Shown: positions 1,943 to 9,426 of the stretch, one piece after another | How the letters are laid out: the number at the start of each line of letters is the position of its first letter | Numbering within the stretch: position 1 is the stretch's first letter | Assembly (NCBI GenBank): GCA_964372765.1 | Contig: CAYJSE010000002.1 | Coordinates: 15,125 to 79,124, forward strand | DNA: 64,000 nucleotides | Source of the DNA: an uncultured Planctomycetia bacterium | Lineage (GTDB): Bacteria; Omnitrophota; Gorgyraeia; 2-02-FULL-51-18; CAYJSE01 | Direction of reading: 5' to 3' | Notes under the pieces: generated by a model | Told to the model about the DNA's origin: nothing | The model's input: only the letters and a program-made list of their open reading frames with translations | Database searches by the model: none | Translations under genes and position numbers: made by a program

Positions 1943-2359
1943 ATGAATCATTGGTATCGGTATTGGGTGTGGGTTTTGGTTGTGTCCTGGTTGGGTGTGG
2001 GCATCGCTTTTGCGGGGGACCCAGCTGATGAGTTGGAGGAGCCACTCGAGTTTAACTACAAGACGGTCACGACGGAACAGGGGCTTGTGTTTCGCGTGCC
2101 GCCGGACATGCCGATCGAGATGAAAAATGGCATGCAGACACCCGTTCCCTATGACGAGTACCTCGCCGCCAAAGTTTCCCGCATGGAGAAGCGTCTGATC
2201 AGCATCGACGAGCGTCTGGCGAAGATAGACGCCAGTCTCGCCAAACTCACCGAGCAAAAAAAGACCGACGAAGCGACCACAGCCTCTGCGTCCGAGGCTC
2301 CACCGGAAGTTCCCAAGCGACGTGTGACCGAGGGCGGACTACTCATTTCGGAGCAGTAA
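1943..2359 (+). CDS. hypothetical secreted/membrane-anchored coiled-coil protein
   Basis: Has a Trp-rich hydrophobic N-terminus (WYRYWVWVLVVSWLGVGIAFA) and a coiled-coil C-terminus. I recognise no family for it. Confidence 0.5.
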   Translation: MNHWYRYWVWVLVVSWLGVGIAFAGDPADELEEPLEFNYKTVTTEQGLVFRVPPDMPIEMKNGMQTPVPYDEYLAAKVSRMEKRLISIDERLAKIDASLAKLTEQKKTDEATTASASEAPPEVPKRRVTEGGLLISEQ

Positions 2360-2652
2360 ATTTATATGAAAGACACTCCAGCTTACATTCAAGAAAAAGT
2401 GTGCGAAATGTTCAGCCGTAAATCGGGCGAGGAGCGTCTTAAAATGGGCTGCTCGATGCACGATTCTTCAAAGAAACTGACGGCCGATTCTCTTGTGAGG
2501 GCTCATGGCGATTCGGCATAAGACCGCCAATGAGTTGGCCGATGAAGAAAAATAAAATTGTATTATTTGCCCTGATGGCTTTGTCGCTCGGCGACGGAGT
2601 TTTGTTTGCCGAGGATAGTGGTAATTTCCAGTCCAGTGAATAATGATAAATG

Positions 2653-2682
2653 TTAGACATTATGTATAACATATGGTATACT
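2653..2682 (+). promoter_or_regulatory. vapBC promoter (TTAGAC ... TATACT) overlapped by operator-like inverted repeats ATGTTA-N11-TAACAT and ACATTATGT
   Basis: A near-consensus -10 TATACT sits 24 nt upstream of the vapB ATG and is preceded by the SD AAGGGGGA. The palindromes are typical of TA autoregulation. Confidence 0.5.
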
Positions 2683-2705
2683 CCTGACAAGGGGGATTGA
2701 ATCCG

Positions 2706-2936
2706 ATGACACAGGTGACTATTCGGCAGCTGACGCATGGTTTCTCAGGTTATCTCAAGGCGGTCAAAAAAGGGGAGAGGATTGTGATTCTTGACCGGCG
2801 AACTCCGGTTGCTGATCTGATTCCGCATAACGAGAATCTTGCTCAGCCTGGCTGGAAACGCCCCATCACCAGAATTAAAGTCAAAGGTTTGAGCATGGCA
2901 GAAACGGTTTCAAAGATGCGAGATGAAGAAAGGTGA
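2706..2936 (+). CDS. vapB: type II antitoxin, Phd/YefM-like (VapB)
   Basis: Small protein whose N-terminus (TQVTIRQLTHGFSGYLKAVKKGERIVILDRRTPVADLIP) matches the Phd/YefM fold pattern. It overlaps the downstream PIN gene by GTGA. The ORF-track start at 2697 is TTG; the ATG at 2706 has a proper RBS. Confidence 0.6.
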   Translation: MTQVTIRQLTHGFSGYLKAVKKGERIVILDRRTPVADLIPHNENLAQPGWKRPITRIKVKGLSMAETVSKMRDEER

Positions 2937-3346
2937 GAGTTTTTATTGATACGTCCTCACTTTTCAAAAAATACATGGATGAGTCCGGCAGTAGTGATTT
3001 TGAGGAGTTGCTGGCCAAGGCATCCGAGATAGCGGTTTCGCCGATTACCTGGATGGAAGTCAATGCCGCCTTGGCGCGTTGTGTCCGAGGTCGTTTGTTG
3101 TCGGCCGAGCAGGCCGGTCAGCTGCGCGTGGAAGCGAAGAGAGATTTCACTTATTTTTTGAAGGTTATATGGAATGAGCACCTCGAAGATAAAACTGTGG
3201 AAATGATCCAAAAGTGTGAGTTGAAAACATTCGATGCGATGCAGTTGGCCTCCGGGATTTTGTCCGAAGCGGAACTTTTTGTAACGTCCGATAAAAAGCT
3301 GTATCAAGAAGCTAAAAAAATGGTTCACCATATTCGTTTTGTTTAA
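2933..3346 (+). CDS. vapC: PIN-domain ribonuclease toxin VapC
   Basis: MRVFIDTSSL (first acidic residue), TWMEVNAAL and FDAMQLA are classic VapC/PIN motifs. It starts at a GTG start 4 nt before the vapB stop. Confidence 0.8.
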   Translation: MRVFIDTSSLFKKYMDESGSSDFEELLAKASEIAVSPITWMEVNAALARCVRGRLLSAEQAGQLRVEAKRDFTYFLKVIWNEHLEDKTVEMIQKCELKTFDAMQLASGILSEAELFVTSDKKLYQEAKKMVHHIRFV

Positions 3347-3565
3347 CCAAACGTAGAATTTATATGAAAAAATTGTTTCTCCAAACATTCGGCTGGCCGT
3401 TGTTCTCCCGGCAGATTCGTCACAACAAGCGTGACGAATCAAAGCGCCGGGACAAGCGAGACTGCGATACTTCAAGTAGCGCTGGCGGGCGGGAGAGAAG
3501 GTTTGATTCTCAAGAGTCACTAATCTTAGGTAATTCTTAACAAAAATATGTTATACTTCTGAAAT

Positions 3566-4267
3566 ATGAGTCCACAAGCAGCGCAAAACGAAATCTATAA
3601 GAACTCTCCTCTAATCGAAGCTGTTTACGAGGTTCGATTTAGTTCTCTTTTATCCATTGAATCCAATCGTGACAAGTTTCACGACAAGATCAAAGATTCG
3701 TTTCCTGATGTAATCATCGGTAAATCGAATCCTGATCCGTATAGCTTTGAAAAACGCGATAAAAGTTGGTCGATTTTACTCTCCCCGACACTTATTGCGG
3801 TTTCTTGTAAAAAATACGAAGGTTTTCAGGCCTACAAAAAAGAATGTCTTAGGCTGCTGTCTATTTTTGGCGAGCTATTCAAAATCGAGAGAATGACAAG
3901 ATCGGGGTTGAGATACGTCAACATTATTCCTTTTACGAGAGAGGCGGGGGTGATTCCGCTCAAAGCTTTCTTGAATGTTGATATAAGCTTACCCAAATCT
4001 ATACCGTCAACATTCAAAACGGCGTCATTTATTTTTGTTTCTCAGTTGGAAAAGGGCAGCATTACTACACGAGTTGAGCCAGTGATGTCACCAGATCAAA
4101 GCCAAGAAGCTCTTATCCTTGATTTTGACTACGCGAAGGATGCCGATTTAAGCTATAAGAATCTTGACGGGTATTTGGAAGAAAGTCATGGGCACACAAA
4201 GGCACTTTTTGAAGGACTTGTTACGGATAGCTATCGAAAAATAATGCGTGGCGAGGTGGTTGCATGA
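3566..4267 (+). CDS. uncharacterised protein resembling the TIGR04255 family of unknown function (N-terminal Y.NSPLIEAVYEVRF and central RSGLRYVN motifs); first gene of a 3-gene coupled module in the low-GC island
   Basis: Family resemblance is from memory of the TIGR04255 signature, not a search. It is strongly AT-rich relative to flanks. It overlaps the next gene by ATGA. Confidence 0.4.
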   Translation: MSPQAAQNEIYKNSPLIEAVYEVRFSSLLSIESNRDKFHDKIKDSFPDVIIGKSNPDPYSFEKRDKSWSILLSPTLIAVSCKKYEGFQAYKKECLRLLSIFGELFKIERMTRSGLRYVNIIPFTREAGVIPLKAFLNVDISLPKSIPSTFKTASFIFVSQLEKGSITTRVEPVMSPDQSQEALILDFDYAKDADLSYKNLDGYLEESHGHTKALFEGLVTDSYRKIMRGEVVA

Positions 4268-4689
4268 GCGGTTTGGCGCTGGAAGAAACCTATAAGTTGG
4301 TCGAAGAAAGAAAAGCTTATTTTCCCAATAACTATAAGGGAGTGGCGCTTGCCATAGGAACTGCCTCTCAAATCAACCAACCCTCGTCATATTTATATTC
4401 GGGGCGGTTTAGCACTGCTCCGTTGATGGAGTTCCAGGCGGAACAGAGGACTTATGTAACCTCAAAGCCTATTCTTGTCAAAGTTTACAGGGAAGATGAC
4501 ATTTTTATTGCTGAGAACGAGAGCCTTGTTTTAAGCGGATCAGGAGCATCGCGTGAGGAAGCCGTTCTGGATTTCGTGAAGCACGTAGATTATTTTTATA
4601 ATTTTTATAAGCGTCAGAATGACAACAATTTGATGGGCGACGCTCTTAGATTAAAAAAGATTTACGCTAATCTTCTTGTTGAGACTTAA
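4264..4689 (+). CDS. HicB-fold (UPF0150/RNase-H-like) protein without obvious DNA-binding domain; putative antitoxin/partner
   Basis: The segment PILVKVYREDDIFIAENESLVLSGSGASREEAVLDFVKHV matches the HicB N-domain pattern (beta-strand, DDG-Y-A, then GeT-EEAL). It is coupled to the next gene by TAATG. Confidence 0.4.
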   Translation: MSGLALEETYKLVEERKAYFPNNYKGVALAIGTASQINQPSSYLYSGRFSTAPLMEFQAEQRTYVTSKPILVKVYREDDIFIAENESLVLSGSGASREEAVLDFVKHVDYFYNFYKRQNDNNLMGDALRLKKIYANLLVET

Positions 4690-4970
4690 TGCAGATCGAA
4701 AAGCGAGATGTTGAATCATCTCTTCCCAAAAAGGGCTTTGAACGGGACGCAAGTAGAGATCATATTTACTTCAATCATCGCTATCAAGGAAAGTACACAG
4801 GCATTTCTACGTATGTATCTCATGGAGCCAAATCCATTGGAGACCCGCTGATTCAGCAGATGAAAAAGCAACTTCACCTTAATAATTCCCACCAAGTTGT
4901 AGACCTGGTTAATTGTCCGATTTCGAGCGAAGAGTATATTCAGATATTGAAGACTAAGGGGCAACTGTAA
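4689..4970 (+). CDS. HicA-like mRNA-interferase toxin homologue with ~28-aa C-terminal extension
   Basis: LPKKGFERDASRDHIYF ... ISTYVSHGAKSIGDPLIQQMKKQLHL follows the HicA pattern GF..(G)SH..(F/Y) ... (V)..H. .k.I..m..ql.L. The HicA pattern is recalled from memory. Confidence 0.45.
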   Translation: MQIEKRDVESSLPKKGFERDASRDHIYFNHRYQGKYTGISTYVSHGAKSIGDPLIQQMKKQLHLNNSHQVVDLVNCPISSEEYIQILKTKGQL

Positions 4971-5038
4971 AATAACCACTCGGTTCTGATTACCCCAGAA
5001 GGCGCAGTTCTCTTAAACACCAAACAGGACAAGGATTT

Positions 5039-6355
5039 ATGCGAAAGTTTTACATTTGCACCTTCGGCTGCCAAATGAATGAGCGGGATTCGGAGGCCGT
5101 GACGGGTCTCTTGCTGGATCGTGGGTACGAGTCGACCCAGGACCCGGAGACCGCGGACTTGCTTCTTTATAATACCTGCAGTGTGCGCGATCACGCGGAG
5201 CAAAAAGTGTTTGGCCGCATGGGAACGTTTGCGAAGCTAAAGGCGCGCAACCCAAAGCTCGTGATCGGGATTTTGGGCTGCATGGCGCAGGAGCACGGAG
5301 ATAATTTTTTTAAAAAAAACCCGGAGATTGATATCGTTTGCGGCACGGGGAATTTAAGCCAGATCGCGGATTTGGTGGAGGAAATTGAATACCGTCGCGC
5401 GCCGGTGGTGGCGATTGATAAATTGGACGACGCGTACGGTCTCGACGGGATTCACTATCGCCGTGACGCGCTGAAGGCGCTGGTGACGATCATGAAGGGC
5501 TGCGACCATCGCTGCACGTACTGTATCGTGCCCTACACGCGCGGCCAGGAGATTTCTAGATCTTCCGAAAGTGTTTTGCGCGAAACCAAAGACTTGGAGC
5601 GGCGTGGATTTAAAGACGTGATGCTTCTCGGGCAAAATGTGAATTCTTACGGCAAGGGGTTGGTGGAGGGGGTTGATTTTTCCGATCTTTTGGACAAAAT
5701 TCAAAACACCGCGCCGGCCATCCCGCGCTTACGGTTTATCACAAGCCACCCCAAGGATGCGCATACGAAACTTTTCCACACGATGCGCGATTTGCCGATG
5801 GTGTGCGAACACCTGCATCTGCCGGTGCAGTCAGGGTCCGACCGGATTTTGAAACGCATGAAGCGCGAGCACACAAGCGAATGGTATCGGGAGCAGGTCG
5901 ACGAGTACAAAGCCGTGGTTCCCGATGGGACGCTCACGACGGACTTTATCGTCGGGTTTCCGGGTGAGACCGAGCAAGATTTTAACGAAACGCTCGCGCT
6001 TGCCGAGCGCATCGAGTTTGACAGCGCGTTTATTTTCAAATATTCGCCTAGGCCGGGCACGCCGGCGTTGAATCTTGAAGACGACGTGCCGGAAACCGAA
6101 AAGGATAGGCGCTTGCAGACACTTCTATCTCTGCAGCGGGCCGTGGGTCTCAAGAAAAACCAGTCTTGGATCGGCAGAGATCTCGAAGTACTTTTTGAGT
6201 CCAAAACCAAAAGAGATGAAAACCGGTATTTCGGCCGCACGCGCGGATTTAAGCGCGTCGTAGTCTCCTCGGCGGAGGATCTGTGTGGAAAATTCCGTCA
6301 TGTGCGGATCACATCCGCGGCGGACGAAACGTTGGTCGGGGAAATTCGTTCTTGA
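5039..6355 (+). CDS. miaB: tRNA-i6A37 methylthiotransferase MiaB (radical SAM, C-terminal TRAM)
   Basis: FYICTFGCQMN, the CxxxCxxC motif (CDHRCTYC) and a TRAM-like C-terminus. Confidence 0.95.
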   Translation: MRKFYICTFGCQMNERDSEAVTGLLLDRGYESTQDPETADLLLYNTCSVRDHAEQKVFGRMGTFAKLKARNPKLVIGILGCMAQEHGDNFFKKNPEIDIVCGTGNLSQIADLVEEIEYRRAPVVAIDKLDDAYGLDGIHYRRDALKALVTIMKGCDHRCTYCIVPYTRGQEISRSSESVLRETKDLERRGFKDVMLLGQNVNSYGKGLVEGVDFSDLLDKIQNTAPAIPRLRFITSHPKDAHTKLFHTMRDLPMVCEHLHLPVQSGSDRILKRMKREHTSEWYREQVDEYKAVVPDGTLTTDFIVGFPGETEQDFNETLALAERIEFDSAFIFKYSPRPGTPALNLEDDVPETEKDRRLQTLLSLQRAVGLKKNQSWIGRDLEVLFESKTKRDENRYFGRTRGFKRVVVSSAEDLCGKFRHVRITSAADETLVGEIRS

Positions 6356-6915
6356 ACCGCGTTCTTTTTTTGATCGTTTGCGTTCTGATTTTGGGTGTGT
6401 CGGTCGCGCATGCCGAAATGAACCGTATCGAGACCAAAAGAGAACGTATGGAGCGCGAGGCGCGCTCCGGATTTTTTTCATCCAATCAAGCGTATGCAAA
6501 AATCCACGAAGATTTTTTGAGGGACGATCATCGGTCCGTTGTTTCCGGGGTGGGTGATTTTTTAAAGCGCGCTCCCAGAGACGCGCGAGCACCTAAGCTG
6601 CAGCGTCTCGCCGAGCTTTCACAATTAAAGTTGAACCCTCCGGCTATTTCGCCGACGCCGACGCCGGCCCTGCGCCAGCGGGCACTCGAAGAGGCGCCGA
6701 TCTTTACCGTGCAGGTGGGAGCGTTTGCGCGTGCGCACAATGCGGAAGCGCTGGCGCGGCGCTTGAAACGACTTGCCTACGACGCGTATGTCGAACCCGA
6801 TGAAGCGGGTGAGCGTCACCGCGTGCGCGTGGGGCATCTGGGTTCCCGCGACGAAGCGCTGGTCCTCGAATCCCGCCTTCGCAAAGAGGGCTACCCTACC
6901 AAGATACATCCATAA
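6352..6915 (+). CDS. SPOR-domain (peptidoglycan-binding) protein with signal peptide
   Basis: A C-terminal SPOR domain (IFTVQVGAFARAHNAEALARRLKRLAYDAYVEP...RHRVRVGHLGSRDEALVLESRLRKEGY). The likely start is the TTG at 6352 (LNRVLFLIVCVLILGVSVAHA signal), overlapping the miaB stop. The ORF-track start at 6283 lies inside miaB. Confidence 0.7.
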   Translation: MNRVLFLIVCVLILGVSVAHAEMNRIETKRERMEREARSGFFSSNQAYAKIHEDFLRDDHRSVVSGVGDFLKRAPRDARAPKLQRLAELSQLKLNPPAISPTPTPALRQRALEEAPIFTVQVGAFARAHNAEALARRLKRLAYDAYVEPDEAGERHRVRVGHLGSRDEALVLESRLRKEGYPTKIHP

Positions 6916-6917
6916 TG

Positions 6918-6954
6918 AATTTTTGGGGCGCCCCGCCCGCTGTCACCCGTCGCC
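6918..6954. repeat. partial copy C of the intergenic repeat (AATTTTTGGGGCGCCCCGCC...GTCACCCGTCGCC right end only)
   Basis: Matches the right-hand 37 nt of copies A and B, including the GGGGCGCCCC palindrome and the right TIR. It creates an in-frame artefactual N-terminal extension of miaA. Confidence 0.65.
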
Positions 6955-6965
6955 ACTCGTTTCCC

Positions 6966-7892
6966 ATGTCCAAGCGCTTTGTCGTGATTGTGGGTCCGAC
7001 AGGATCTGGGAAGACGGCGGTGGCGGTGGAGCTGGCACGGCGCATTCCGGCGGAGATTATCTCCTGCGACTCGATGCAGATTTATCGCGGGATGCCGATC
7101 GCGACTCAAGCGCCTTCTTTAAGAGAGCGAAAAAGTATCCCGTTTCATCTCACGGCTATTCTTCCTCAGGACTCTGAATATAGCGCCGCGCGGTTTCGGG
7201 ACGAGGCCTCGCAATCCATGCGCGAGATTTGGCATCGAAAGAAGGTGCCGCTCGTGGTCGGCGGGACGGGTTTATACTTCAGGGCGCTGTTGGACGGGCT
7301 TTTTGAGAGCCAGAAAGATGCCTCGAAAGATGAAGCGTACCGTAAAAAACTTTTGGCGCTTCACGAAGAAAAGAGTATTCCATTTTTGCATGAAAAGCTG
7401 AAAGCGGTTGATCCGATCGCAGCCGAACGGATTCATCCCAACGACATCCGGCGCATCGTGCGCGCGCTCGAGGTTTACCACAAGACGCGACGACCGATTT
7501 CCGAGCAGCAACCTAAACGAGAGGGCTTGCGCAACAAATTTCCCCACGCGATTTATTTTTTAGAAAGGGATAGGCAGGATTTGTATGAGCGTATTGAAGC
7601 GCGCGTGGATCAGATGTTCCGTAGGGGGTTGCTGCGGGAAGTAAAGGGATTGCTGGAGAAAGATTTAAGCCAGACAGCCGAATGCGCCATCGGCGTGCGC
7701 GAGATTCGCGATTACTTGGAAGGAAAAGTGGACCTCCAGCGGACAAAGGAGCTCTTAAAACAGCACACGCGCAACTACGCCAAACGCCAGATCTCCTGGT
7801 TTCGCCACGAAAAGGGCGTGACCCACATTCCCGTCGCGCCTACCGAAAAACCAGTCGAAATTGCTGAGAGAATCTTAGGTTTATGTCCATAA
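6966..7892 (+). CDS. miaA: tRNA dimethylallyltransferase MiaA
   Basis: P-loop VVIVGPTGSGKT plus ISCDSMQIYRGMPIATQ. The start is moved to the ATG at 6966 (MSKRFVVIVGPTGSGK); the upstream 17 codons are repeat-derived. Confidence 0.9.
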   Translation: MSKRFVVIVGPTGSGKTAVAVELARRIPAEIISCDSMQIYRGMPIATQAPSLRERKSIPFHLTAILPQDSEYSAARFRDEASQSMREIWHRKKVPLVVGGTGLYFRALLDGLFESQKDASKDEAYRKKLLALHEEKSIPFLHEKLKAVDPIAAERIHPNDIRRIVRALEVYHKTRRPISEQQPKREGLRNKFPHAIYFLERDRQDLYERIEARVDQMFRRGLLREVKGLLEKDLSQTAECAIGVREIRDYLEGKVDLQRTKELLKQHTRNYAKRQISWFRHEKGVTHIPVAPTEKPVEIAERILGLCP

Positions 7893-7899
7893 AATCGTG

Positions 7900-8166
7900 G
7901 GCGACGGGTCCTGCCGCTCGGCAGCCCCAAAAATTCTTGCGTAACTGCGGTTCGCTGCAAATTTTCGGGGCGCCCGCTCCGCCACAGAGCGTCGGCGGAT
8001 TCGTCCCAAAGCTCTGTGGACGGACTTCGCCAGAGCTTTGTGGCGAGCTCGCGTCACCCGTCGCCTCCGCCGAAGGCGGATCCGTCCTACGGCGGAGAAG
8101 GACAGTCCCTCGACAAGCTCGGGATGGTGAGCGAAGTCGAACCAGACCCCGAGTCAAAATCAATGG
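7900..8166. repeat. intergenic repeat element copy B (TIRs GGCGACGGGT/ACCCGTCGCC; carries an extra ~67-bp structured insert with CCACAGAGC...GCTCTGTGG inverted repeat)
   Basis: The core 7903-7976 matches copy A. The tail CGAGTCAAAATCAATGG lies at 8150-8166, immediately upstream of hflX. Confidence 0.8.
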
Positions 8167-8181
8167 GCAAGACCTGCGCTC

Positions 8182-9426
8182 ATGAAAGAAAAAGCAATCT
8201 TAGCGACGGTGCAGTTTGATCGGCAGCGCAGTGGGTGGTCGCTGGAGGACAAGGCCGCTGAGCTGTTGAGCCTGTGTGAGTCGGCGGGTCTTTCGGCGCT
8301 TCACAACTTTACTTTTCGTCAGCGTATTCCGACCGCGTCCTTGCTTTTAGGGAAGGGCAAGGTAGAGCTTTTGCAAAAGGCAGTCCGGACCGAGAGAGCG
8401 CAGGTGCTCGTTTTTGATGCGGATCTTTCGCCGAGCCAGCAGAGGAATATCGAGGAAATCGCCGATGTTAAGACCATTGACCGCACTCAGCTTATCCTGG
8501 ACATTTTCGCTCAGCGCGCGAAGTCCAGCGAAGGTAAGCTTCAGGTGGAGTTGGCCCAGCTGCGTTATCTTTTACCGCGATTGTCCGGCCAGGGGATTTA
8601 TCTTTCGCGGCTCGGGGGCGGTATCGGCACGCGCGGACCGGGTGAACAAAAGCTAGAAGTGGACCGTCGCCGCATCCGTGAACGCATCACGAAGCTGTCC
8701 CGCCAACTGCAAGGTCTCCAGCAAAAGCGCCAGTCGGCGCTTGCCAGGAAAAGAGAAATCGAGTTCCCGGTCGTCGCTCTCGTGGGCTACACCAACGCGG
8801 GAAAGTCGAGTCTATTCAACGCACTGACACGCTCGCGCATGGTCGTGAAAGATCAGCTTTTCTCAACACTCGACACCACCACGCGCGGACTGGCGCTGCC
8901 CGATGGGCAGAAGGTGTTGCTCGTCGACACCGTCGGATTTTTAAGCGGGTTACCGCATCACCTGATCGAGTCGTTCAAGGCCACTCTTGAGGAAACGGTG
9001 GAGGCGGATTTGTTGCTGCATGTCATAGACTCGAGCCGCAGCGATTGGCAGGTTTTGGAAAGGGCCGTTCATGAGGTGCTGGCCCAGCTCGGCGCCGATC
9101 CAAAACCGATGATTCGAGTGTTTAATAAAATCGATGTAGGTCGCTCCTACGCCGCCGCCAAAGATGCAGTTTTCGTTTCTGCCCTCACAGGCCAGGGTTT
9201 GGACGCCTTGCTTGGACGTATCGCTGTGGCTTTCTCAGCCCGTCGCCAGAGACGGAAACTCTTTGTCCCCAACACTTCCCTAGGGTTAACCGGCTTCCTA
9301 TATAGGGCCGCCCACGTGGTGACTCGGGAAAACACCCCGGAGGGCGCTTACTTTACCGTGGATATTACCCCTCAAGCGGAGGGTGTCTTCAAGAAGGGGT
9401 TGACAAGGGGTTCCTTGATGTTGTAA
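8182..9426 (+). CDS. hflX: GTPase HflX
   Basis: N-terminal HflX domain, G-domain motifs GYTNAGKSSLFNALT and DTVGF, and NKID. Confidence 0.9.
   Translation: MKEKAILATVQFDRQRSGWSLEDKAAELLSLCESAGLSALHNFTFRQRIPTASLLLGKGKVELLQKAVRTERAQVLVFDADLSPSQQRNIEEIADVKTIDRTQLILDIFAQRAKSSEGKLQVELAQLRYLLPRLSGQGIYLSRLGGGIGTRGPGEQKLEVDRRRIRERITKLSRQLQGLQQKRQSALARKREIEFPVVALVGYTNAGKSSLFNALTRSRMVVKDQLFSTLDTTTRGLALPDGQKVLLVDTVGFLSGLPHHLIESFKATLEETVEADLLLHVIDSSRSDWQVLERAVHEVLAQLGADPKPMIRVFNKIDVGRSYAAAKDAVFVSALTGQGLDALLGRIAVAFSARRQRRKLFVPNTSLGLTGFLYRAAHVVTRENTPEGAYFTVDITPQAEGVFKKGLTRGSLML

Follow-up and report, generated by a model that had tools for sequence, protein, structure and literature searches.

A low-GC stretch upstream of miaB in an Omnitrophota genome, probably a composite of a vapBC pair and a later three-gene cassette with HicAB-like features

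In canonical hicAB toxin-antitoxin (TA) operons, the toxin gene comes first. In the three-component systems omega-epsilon-zeta and PaaR-PaaA-ParE, an extra regulator gene is followed by the antitoxin gene and then by the toxin gene. Domains resembling the TATA-binding protein (TBP) are also found in a TA setting, and RnlA depends on its TBP1 domain to bind substrate (PMC8266594). Here we describe a 2.6-kb stretch of low guanine-plus-cytosine (GC) content at positions 2360-4990 of a 64-kb window, the window being the whole stretch of 64,000 nucleotides analysed (contig CAYJSE010000002.1, positions 15,125 to 79,124, of assembly GCA_964372765.1, from an uncultured bacterium of the Omnitrophota lineage). 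The stretch lies in front of miaB and holds a vapBC pair (module A) and a cassette of three overlapping, translationally coupled genes (module B, or the trio), the first of which encodes a TIGR04255-family protein (T4255). The low-GC stretch is real and foreign. We put at about 0.72 the probability of our explanation as a whole, a composite of vapBC and a more recently acquired, HicAB-like trio located at a hot spot before miaB. The coordinates of all features are given in Table 1.

Composition and synteny of the region upstream of miaB

The GC content of positions 2360-4990 is 42.9%, compared to 53.7% for the remainder of the window (mean of the 64-kb window, 53.2%). No 2,631-nt sliding window has a lower value (mean 0.532, standard deviation 0.022), which corresponds to about -4.6 standard deviations. 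The dip is two-tiered, with GC contents of ~45-48% for vapBC and ~41% for the trio. The same tiers are seen in the GC content at third codon positions (GC3), which is 0.652 +/- 0.029 for the 36 long open reading frames (ORFs) of the window (minimum 0.587), 0.494 and 0.522 for vapB and vapC, and 0.397, 0.444 and 0.426 for the three cassette genes. Since the GC3 of the island thus falls below that of the other window ORFs at two levels, the dip is real and two-tiered.

An original prediction, made from the DNA letters, had described a sharp GC drop at 2360-4990 between flanks of ~58% GC, and a single low-GC island with a vapBC cassette and a three-gene coupled operon, two TA-like modules in all, without integrase or tRNA. 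The drop is indeed the lowest 2.6-kb stretch in the window, with GC3 values below those of all 36 long ORFs. However, the flanks measure ~53-54% GC and the island is not one uniform block. The gene content was correctly read: Phd-like and PIN genes are followed by three overlapping ORFs. The vapBC module is clear, and the last two genes of the operon appear to be a divergent HicB/HicA pair. Pfam and NCBIfam scans of the island ORFs detected no integrase or recombinase domain, and no tRNA, tmRNA or match to an Rfam family was found in the whole window.

MiaB shares 69-77% identity with its counterparts in several Candidatus Omnitrophota metagenome-assembled genomes, some of them labelled uncultured Planctomycetia. 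The window proteins were mapped by tblastn onto nine related Omnitrophota-type loci. In all nine, miaB, the SPOR-domain gene and miaA are syntenic and the region upstream of miaB is variable. A vapBC pair is present there in only one locus (L002), at the same site, and the three-gene operon in none (0/9). DNA alignment indicates that L002 shares the vapBC promoter, the palindrome and the sequence 3' of vapC. Because L002 carries vapBC at the same site, vapBC is taken to be the older part of the stretch. In the other relatives (L004-L010) the cargo between the conserved flank and miaB differs from one locus to the next. L007 carries a methyltransferase and a Gp49/HigB-like/HTH_37 TA pair, the latter between copies of the miaB 5' end. 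Reading of ORF translations suggested an IS200/RAYT-like transposase and a nucleotidyltransferase-like protein in L010, and a PilT-like protein in L008.

The left flank gene (hyp138) has homologues in L005 and L007, at a distance of 6-10 kb upstream from miaB. The hyp138 homologue of three relatives is followed by a conserved four-gene block (L005 4198-7484, L007 424-4259, L008 4428-8223), which includes a thioredoxin-like 183-aa protein ~70% identical between relatives. This block is missing throughout the 64-kb window. Therefore position 2360 is a synteny break too, and the left edge of the island coincides with a deletion or rearrangement.

These comparisons bear on whether the region was acquired at all. 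It could be ancestral and merely AT-biased, for instance because short TA genes tolerate AT drift. In this respect vapBC occupies the same position in L002, and the identity of its products to the L002 homologues (63% for vapB, 51% for vapC) is like that of the flanking MiaA (56%) and SPOR-domain protein (48%). However, such an origin is refuted for the trio, which is found in many unrelated phyla and contexts and at this locus in none of the relatives, and the other relatives carry different cargo. The original prediction had named the same genes at the same position in all relatives as the observation that would speak against acquisition; only vapBC is shared, and only with L002. Its proposal of horizontal origin is supported by evidence other than composition, including the recurrence of the trio in unrelated contexts with sharp borders. 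We consider an ancestral origin of the region hardly credible.

Cassette borders, miaB repeats and the assembly of the stretch

The trio is a homology unit of its own. By blastn, positions 3520-4979 are 82% identical to L082-L084, positions 3537-4973 are 78% identical to L085, and identity to L086-L088 is 70%. The unit spans from ~46 nt before the first start codon to ~9 nt past the last stop codon. Its homology borders are sharp at 3520 and 4979, and the flanks differ in each context. The GC content of the cassette is below that of the host locus in 9/10 contexts. The trio recurs on over 80 unrelated contigs. To quantify linkage, 83 loci were collected with the TIGR04255 profile, counts being limited to loci with enough downstream sequence. 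The second gene follows the TIGR04255 gene in 69 of 70 loci and the third gene is present in 62 of 64. The contexts include a GH92 gene, a PLD-helicase with an MmeI-type restriction system (L085), serine recombinases (L086), a position between archease and RtcB, and a position among MNT-HEPN pairs and IS21 (L101); Fic, HipA and a Schlafen/AlbA_2 ATPase are found close to other copies. Relatives of TIGR04255 are encoded on three IMG/VR viral contigs, and the complete trio on two of these. In L191 (IMGVR_UViG_3300007987_001205, 3833-8982) a tyrosine integrase lies on one side of the trio and GmrSD on the other, with a D5-type primase adjacent. L191 is an integrative element whose TIGR04255 protein is 33% identical to that of the window; GmrSD is a type IV restriction enzyme, and the layout recalls the region in which a satellite or prophage carries its defence cargo.

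The second and third genes are fused in L089 (5708-6430, Candidatus Scalindua rubra MAYW01000016) and in P0438, giving ORFs of 240 and 243 aa that look like natural antitoxin-toxin fusions. In two lineages a frameshift affects the third gene: it falls inside the core in L094 (~6130-6400) and costs no more than the C-terminal extension in L082-L084; both upstream genes are intact in each case.

The cassette carries its own promoter. The extended -10 element TGTTATACT ends 8 nt before the first ATG, and TATGYTATAMT is kept at 7-8 nt from the start codon in L082, L085 and L086. No Shine-Dalgarno sequence precedes the first cassette ATG. The cassette mRNA is therefore probably leaderless, judging from this spacing. 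Of the second promoter proposed originally, the -10 element is real and conserved across copies, but TTAACA lies only 9 nt upstream of it and is therefore not a -35 element.

At the boundary between modules A and B lies a decayed second copy of the sequence upstream of miaB together with the first ten miaB codons. It pairs with the genuine copy at the 5' end of miaB, so that the cassette is flanked by direct repeats duplicating the target. The 58-aa ORF at 3364-3540 (MKKLFLQTFGWPLF...) is mere read-through of this duplicate. A Sel1-repeat gene sits here in L002, and the ORF was considered as a remnant of such a gene; this was rejected because its peptide is the MiaB N-terminus, MKKLFLQTFG being identical to that of the L010 MiaB (which starts MKKLFLQTFGCQMNERD). 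An nhmmer profile built from miaB 5' copies detected copies in the window, L002, L006 and L007. Four of these were outside the training set: L006 213-247 (E 1e-6) and L007 8122, 8223 and 9882 (E ~1e-4). All copies detected in L006 and L007 are upstream of miaB in the same orientation. In L007 and L010 the repeat unit measures ~160 nt, a GC-rich segment (CTTCTCGCGCTCCGCGCTCGGCGC) being part of it. One derived patch, TGGCCRTTGTT, follows the breakpoint (GCCRTTGTT directly after TTCGGCTG) in the window, L002, L006 and L007 alike, and these copies therefore descend from one old duplication.

Relatives hold one to five such duplicates around other cargo, including another TA pair. This recurrence of miaB 5' copies upstream of miaB argues for a recombination hot spot, and the slot looks like a long-lived one with turnover of its cargo. 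The miaB 5' repeats could constitute a novel integrase-independent cassette-capture site or a duplication-prone leader element; in the first case capture would depend neither on a tRNA gene nor on a resident integrase. An integron was also considered and not adopted, there being no IntI and no attC-like site. The spacer that separates the decayed duplicate from the cassette can be aligned with L002 only in part (GAGACTGCGATAC is common to both). A perfect inverted repeat of 9 bp lies within it, ATTCGTCAC (3415-3423) and GTGACGAAT (3431-3439), with a 7-nt loop and no T-run after it. An exact 13-nt repeat, AATTTATATGAAA, occurs at 2359 and 3357 and would bracket vapBC. It was not retained as a target-site duplication of vapBC: such a repeat arises by chance in 8-12% of simulations (p ~0.08-0.12) and the miaB 5' profile detected no copy at 2359, so that this role is unproven.

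The same data bear on the number of events. The original prediction implied that the whole 2.6 kb is one genomic island from a single acquisition, and the low-GC tract is in fact continuous, with every gene on the + strand. However, GC3 is 0.49-0.52 in vapBC and 0.40-0.44 in the trio, vapBC and the right junction are shared with L002 and the trio is not, homology to unrelated contigs is limited to 3520-4979, and a miaB 5' duplicate lies between the two parts. A single event is thus very unlikely. We favour a composite accessory islet in the variable slot directly upstream of miaB, which would have arisen by at least two acquisitions: vapBC would be the older one, and the 1.46-kb cassette, with its own extended -10 promoter, the younger. 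Small addictive cassettes would then persist at the recombination hot spot. As TA cassettes gathering at a chromosomal hot spot, the island itself is nothing out of the ordinary.

Module A has the features of an ordinary, canonical vapBC type II TA pair. VapC matches Pfam PIN (PF01850) with an E of 3.5e-13 (50.7 bits, cutoff 23.6). Its acidic residues D6, E42, D101 and D119, read from the sequences, are kept in the L002 homologue. VapB matches PhdYeFM_antitox (PF02604, E 1.9e-4) and NCBIfam phd_fam (E 0.011), both under the family cutoffs. GGGGGA lies 9-10 nt 5' of the vapB ATG at 2706, and an identical Logan contig has vapB called as a 76-aa gene. The first promoter of the original prediction was recovered, in the form TAGACA-17-TATACT plus an upstream TG. 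Over it lies the palindrome GTTAGACAT-T-ATGTATAAC, which is perfect in L002 (GTTAGACA-TAT-TGTCTAAC), where the whole promoter/operator block is kept. The Phd/YefM-type antitoxin would bind the PIN RNase toxin and repress its own promoter via this palindrome. Two doubtful small ORFs lie between the flank gene and vapBC, of 51 aa (2366-2521) and 33 aa (2542-2643), the latter signal-peptide-like (MKKNKIVLFALMALSLG...). Scans of Pfam, NCBIfam, PADLOC and PHROG gave no match for either, nor did tblastn against the loci retrieved; they may be leftovers of earlier cargo.

Proteins of the three-gene cassette

T4255 matches TIGR04255 with 111.5 bits (cutoff 30) over profile positions 2-251 of 252. It belongs to no Pfam family and has no relative in the PDB by sequence-profile search, and literature searches on TIGR04255 and CHP04255 found no mention in the library searched. 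The AlphaFold2 model has a predicted local distance difference test score (pLDDT) of 91.9 and comprises two beta-alpha-beta(3-4)-alpha halves. Foldseek matched it to S-adenosylmethionine decarboxylase (AdoMetDC) and to many TBPs (E 3e-5 to 1e-3, probability ~1). Compared to viral models, the best template-modelling (TM) scores were 0.55-0.62, and several of these matches were giant-virus TBP-like proteins. A two-part TBP-like (helix-grip) fold is thus predicted by the model. Residues R24, Y84, G114-L115-R116-Y117, D186, D188 and H208 are invariant from the window to plasmid homologues of 21-25% identity, which points to a specific pocket or active site in the aligned family. In PHROGs the sole match is phrog_5464 (E 1.4e-8), a family of unknown function; plasmid and phage databases gave six distant plasmid matches and one phage match for T4255.

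The distant plasmid TIGR04255 genes head three-gene operons in which an Xre/CI-type helix-turn-helix (HTH) protein comes next, followed by a ~275-aa protein. In L098, L099 and L100, from Acinetobacter, Pseudomonas and Vibrio plasmids, the HTH protein has 189-226 aa and the unannotated third protein 273-287 aa; these operons may represent a second TIGR04255-associated TA-like system. On the Thermus brockianus plasmid pTB1 (L097, 2375-4791), a distant TIGR04255 gene and a gene for an unknown 147-aa protein come directly after a CopG-VapC pair. The likeness to the window order, vapBC and then TIGR04255, is probably a coincidental clustering of TA modules.

The third protein consists of a putative HicA core (residues 6-63) and a conserved C-terminal extension of ~30 aa with a Cys-Pro motif. 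Its family comprises ~1,470 clusters at 50% identity in many phyla, and all members carry the extension. Of 116 diverse family members, 56 match HicA_toxin (PF07927), the best with an E of 1e-7, and this is the one family that recurs among them. Two family alignments show H25 to be nearly invariant, and it lines up by eye with the His of the GSNH motif of Escherichia coli HicA (sequence checked against 6HPB). An hhalign comparison of the family with one E. coli HicA sequence gave no information (probability 0.9%), and plasmid and phage databases yielded one weak plasmid match (Geminocystis, 35%).

In the model of the second protein, the N-terminal 60 residues are disordered (pLDDT <50 for 27-48) and residues 64-141 form a beta-beta-beta-beta-alpha-alpha-beta domain (pLDDT >90). 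The best Foldseek match is the putative antitoxin 3K6Q (probability 0.96-0.97, root-mean-square deviation (rmsd) of 3.1 A over 63-68 columns, 25% identity, E 0.3-0.4), followed by weak matches to HicB 6G26 (probability 0.25-0.33) and double-stranded RNA-binding domains. The protein itself has no family match. Among its relatives a single Pfam family recurs, the antitoxin N-terminal domain PF12910, matched by 32 of 112 members with a best E of 8e-4. No ribbon-helix-helix (RHH) or HTH DNA-binding domain was found among the 112 family members or in the AlphaFold2 model, which ends in a helix and a strand.

Our preferred reading of module B is a HicAB-type pair with inverted gene order and an antitoxin devoid of a DNA-binding domain, tied to a TIGR04255 protein; the trio would then be an unannotated, widespread three-component variant of HicAB, as far as its sequences tell. 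The HicB-like protein would sequester the HicA-like RNase, and may have lost the usual DNA-binding domain and gained the disordered N-terminal arm. T4255 could supply the nucleic-acid- or ligand-binding function wanting in this truncated antitoxin, acting as a regulator, sensor or substrate adaptor.

Several observations weigh against parts of the interpretation given here. The third protein scores 17.6 bits with HicA_toxin, below the cutoff of 27 (E 0.0042), although the alignment covers positions 2-57 of the 58-position profile. Sequence-profile searches of the PDB with all three cassette families gave no meaningful match, HicA and HicB included. For the HicB-like assignment the basis is a small domain whose Foldseek E-values are poor (0.3-2), and this identity is the weakest link of the interpretation. 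The TBP and AdoMetDC matches of T4255 have TM scores of only 0.3-0.44 and high rmsd, and its invariant R/D/D/H set would also fit an enzyme or a small-molecule pocket, not a nucleic-acid binder. As regards the island, an integrase lies neither inside nor adjoining it, and the vapBC shared with L002 could also be an independent capture of the same cassette.

The missing DNA-binding domain raises the question of whether T4255 replaces it as the transcriptional autoregulator of a three-component TA system. The gene order regulator-antitoxin-toxin would be that of omega-epsilon-zeta and PaaR-PaaA-ParE, the TBP-like saddle is a DNA-binding fold, and direct repeats TAATCTTAG/TAATTCTTAA, kept in L082, lie 5' of the -10 element. 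However, the second protein of the gammaproteobacterial TIGR04255 operons already has an HTH, and the invariant residues of T4255 are acidic or His (D186, D188, H208) and do not form a basic DNA-binding surface. We regard this role as unlikely. The disordered arm of the second protein, with its conserved aromatic residues Y10, Y24 and F44, could also be the client of a dedicated chaperone, as with SecB in toxin-antitoxin-chaperone (TAC) systems, and the near-obligate linkage of the three genes would be explained in this way. However, the fold of T4255 is not that of SecB and its invariant polar set suggests a specific pocket, not a chaperone surface. Moreover, hhalign found no relation between the 141-aa family and the second genes of the Thermus and Acinetobacter TIGR04255 operons. 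A chaperone role for T4255 appears improbable.

The contexts of the trio are also compatible with anti-phage abortive infection, in which T4255 would sense a phage cue (a nucleic acid or small molecule) and free the HicA-like RNase from its HicB-like inhibitor. The trio has restriction systems, GmrSD, the Schlafen/AlbA_2 ATPase, HipA and MNT-HEPN pairs as neighbours, T4255 has relatives in phage families (phrog_5464) and heads operons with varying downstream pairs, and the anti-phage RNase RnlA has two TBP-like domains, of which the first, TBP1, is needed for substrate binding (PMC8266594). However, defence-gene neighbours are also typical of ordinary TA modules, and sequence similarity to RnlA was not detected. 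The search of a defence database that the original prediction had proposed for the island proteins, run with PADLOC (PADLOC-DB 2.0), speaks against a defence role and also weighs on our own interpretation: there was no match at E <= 0.1 for T4255, the middle protein or vapBC, and a single meaningless match (E 0.022) for the third protein. Abortive infection is therefore a tentative proposal. In the same tentative spirit, the trio may be a new three-component TA/abortive-infection family in which a free-standing two-part TBP-like protein is the sensor or RNA-substrate adaptor of a HicA-type RNase, as in a split RnlA, and TIGR04255 a shared front-end for several unrelated antitoxin/effector pairs.

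Table 1. Features of the low-GC stretch, its flanks and the corresponding repeats in related loci. Positions refer to the window unless a locus is named.
Feature	Position	Strand	Remarks
Left flank gene (hyp138), 138-aa hypothetical protein	1943-2359	+	GC3 0.683; composition and synteny break directly after stop
Left part of module A	2360-2648	+	GC of 2360-2705, 0.434
Module A, vapBC cassette	2649-3346	+	Phd/YefM-type antitoxin, PIN toxin, palindromic operator over promoter
vapBC promoter, TAGACA-17-TATACT, TG extension	2654-2682	+	Promoter scan, 10/12 matches
Putative palindromic operator	2655-2673	+	Overlaps vapBC promoter
vapB, Phd/YefM-type antitoxin, 76 aa	2706-2936	+	ATG 2706; mechanical ORF starts at TTG 2697
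vapC, PIN toxin, 137 aa	2933-3346	+	GTG start overlaps vapB stop by 4 nt
Decayed duplicate of miaB upstream region and first 10 codons (MKKLFLQTFG...)	3345-3395	+	nhmmer E 5e-8
Spacer	3396-3519	+	GC 0.553; outside cassette homology
Module B, three-gene cassette, 1.46 kb	3520-4979	+	Homology unit common to unrelated contigs; GC 0.405
Extended -10 promoter	3549-3557	+	Ends 8 nt before ATG
TIGR04255-family protein (T4255), 233 aa	3566-4267	+	NCBIfam E 5.8e-32
HicB-like putative antitoxin, 141 aa	4264-4689	+	ATGA overlap with T4255 stop
Divergent HicA-like putative toxin, 93 aa	4689-4970	+	TAATG overlap with upstream gene
Genuine miaB upstream region and 5' end, right-hand repeat copy	5016-5070	+	nhmmer E 3.3e-6
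miaB	5039-6355	+	TIGR01574, 492.7 bits (cutoff 355); followed by SPOR-domain gene and miaA
Direct repeats, miaB leader and first 10 codons	L002 1036-1090; L006 213-247; L010 2928-3071		Flank variable cargo
Direct repeats, miaB leader and first 10 codons	L007 7172-7337, 8122-8278, 9882-10029		Flank variable cargo

Comparison with known systems

Module A shares with VapBC systems a PIN domain over the Pfam cutoff, four conserved acidic residues, an upstream antitoxin gene with a 4-nt overlap and a palindrome over the promoter. It differs in nothing notable, its antitoxin scoring below the family cutoffs. The slot before miaB recalls integron cassette arrays and islands with duplicated ends in that small cargo, often TA pairs, lies between direct repeats and varies among relatives. 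It differs in that it has no IntI or other integrase nearby and does not involve a tRNA, and its repeats are the miaB leader and 5' end, not attC-like sites.

The trio resembles HicAB (E. coli 6HPB; Burkholderia pseudomallei 6G26) in several respects. Its third protein aligns along the whole HicA_toxin profile, below the cutoff, with the conserved His, and its second protein has a small beta-sheet/helix domain resembling HicB-type antitoxins. However, the gene order is reversed, HicB-like before HicA-like, in the window and in all cassettes examined. In the putative antitoxin a C-terminal RHH/HTH DNA-binding domain is absent and the first 60 aa form a disordered arm, the putative toxin adds a conserved 30-aa C-terminal extension with Cys-Pro, and a near-obligate TIGR04255 gene precedes the pair. 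Neither the 141-aa nor the 93-aa protein reaches current Pfam or NCBIfam cutoffs, and two of the three cassette proteins are without Pfam, NCBIfam and PADLOC annotation. The trio would illustrate how HicAB-type modules lose a DNA-binding domain and recruit a separate partner, and it gives a concrete, testable context to a named family of unknown function.

In the three-component systems omega-epsilon-zeta, PaaR-PaaA-ParE and HigB-HigA-SecB (TAC), a TA pair is likewise accompanied by a third co-transcribed protein, needed there for regulation or antitoxin function. The extra gene of the trio comes first, as those of omega and PaaR do; its product is predicted to be TBP-like (helix-grip), unlike omega (RHH), PaaR (HTH) and SecB. 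RnlA and LsoA offer a different likeness, two TBP-like domains together with an RNase toxin in a TA or defence setting. RnlA was not among the top 50 Foldseek matches of T4255. RnlA combines its TBP-like domains with a HEPN RNase in one polypeptide, whereas in the trio such domains would form a separate protein adjoining a HicA-type RNase. For TBP-like domains that act together with a TA RNase, RnlA offers the nearest precedent.

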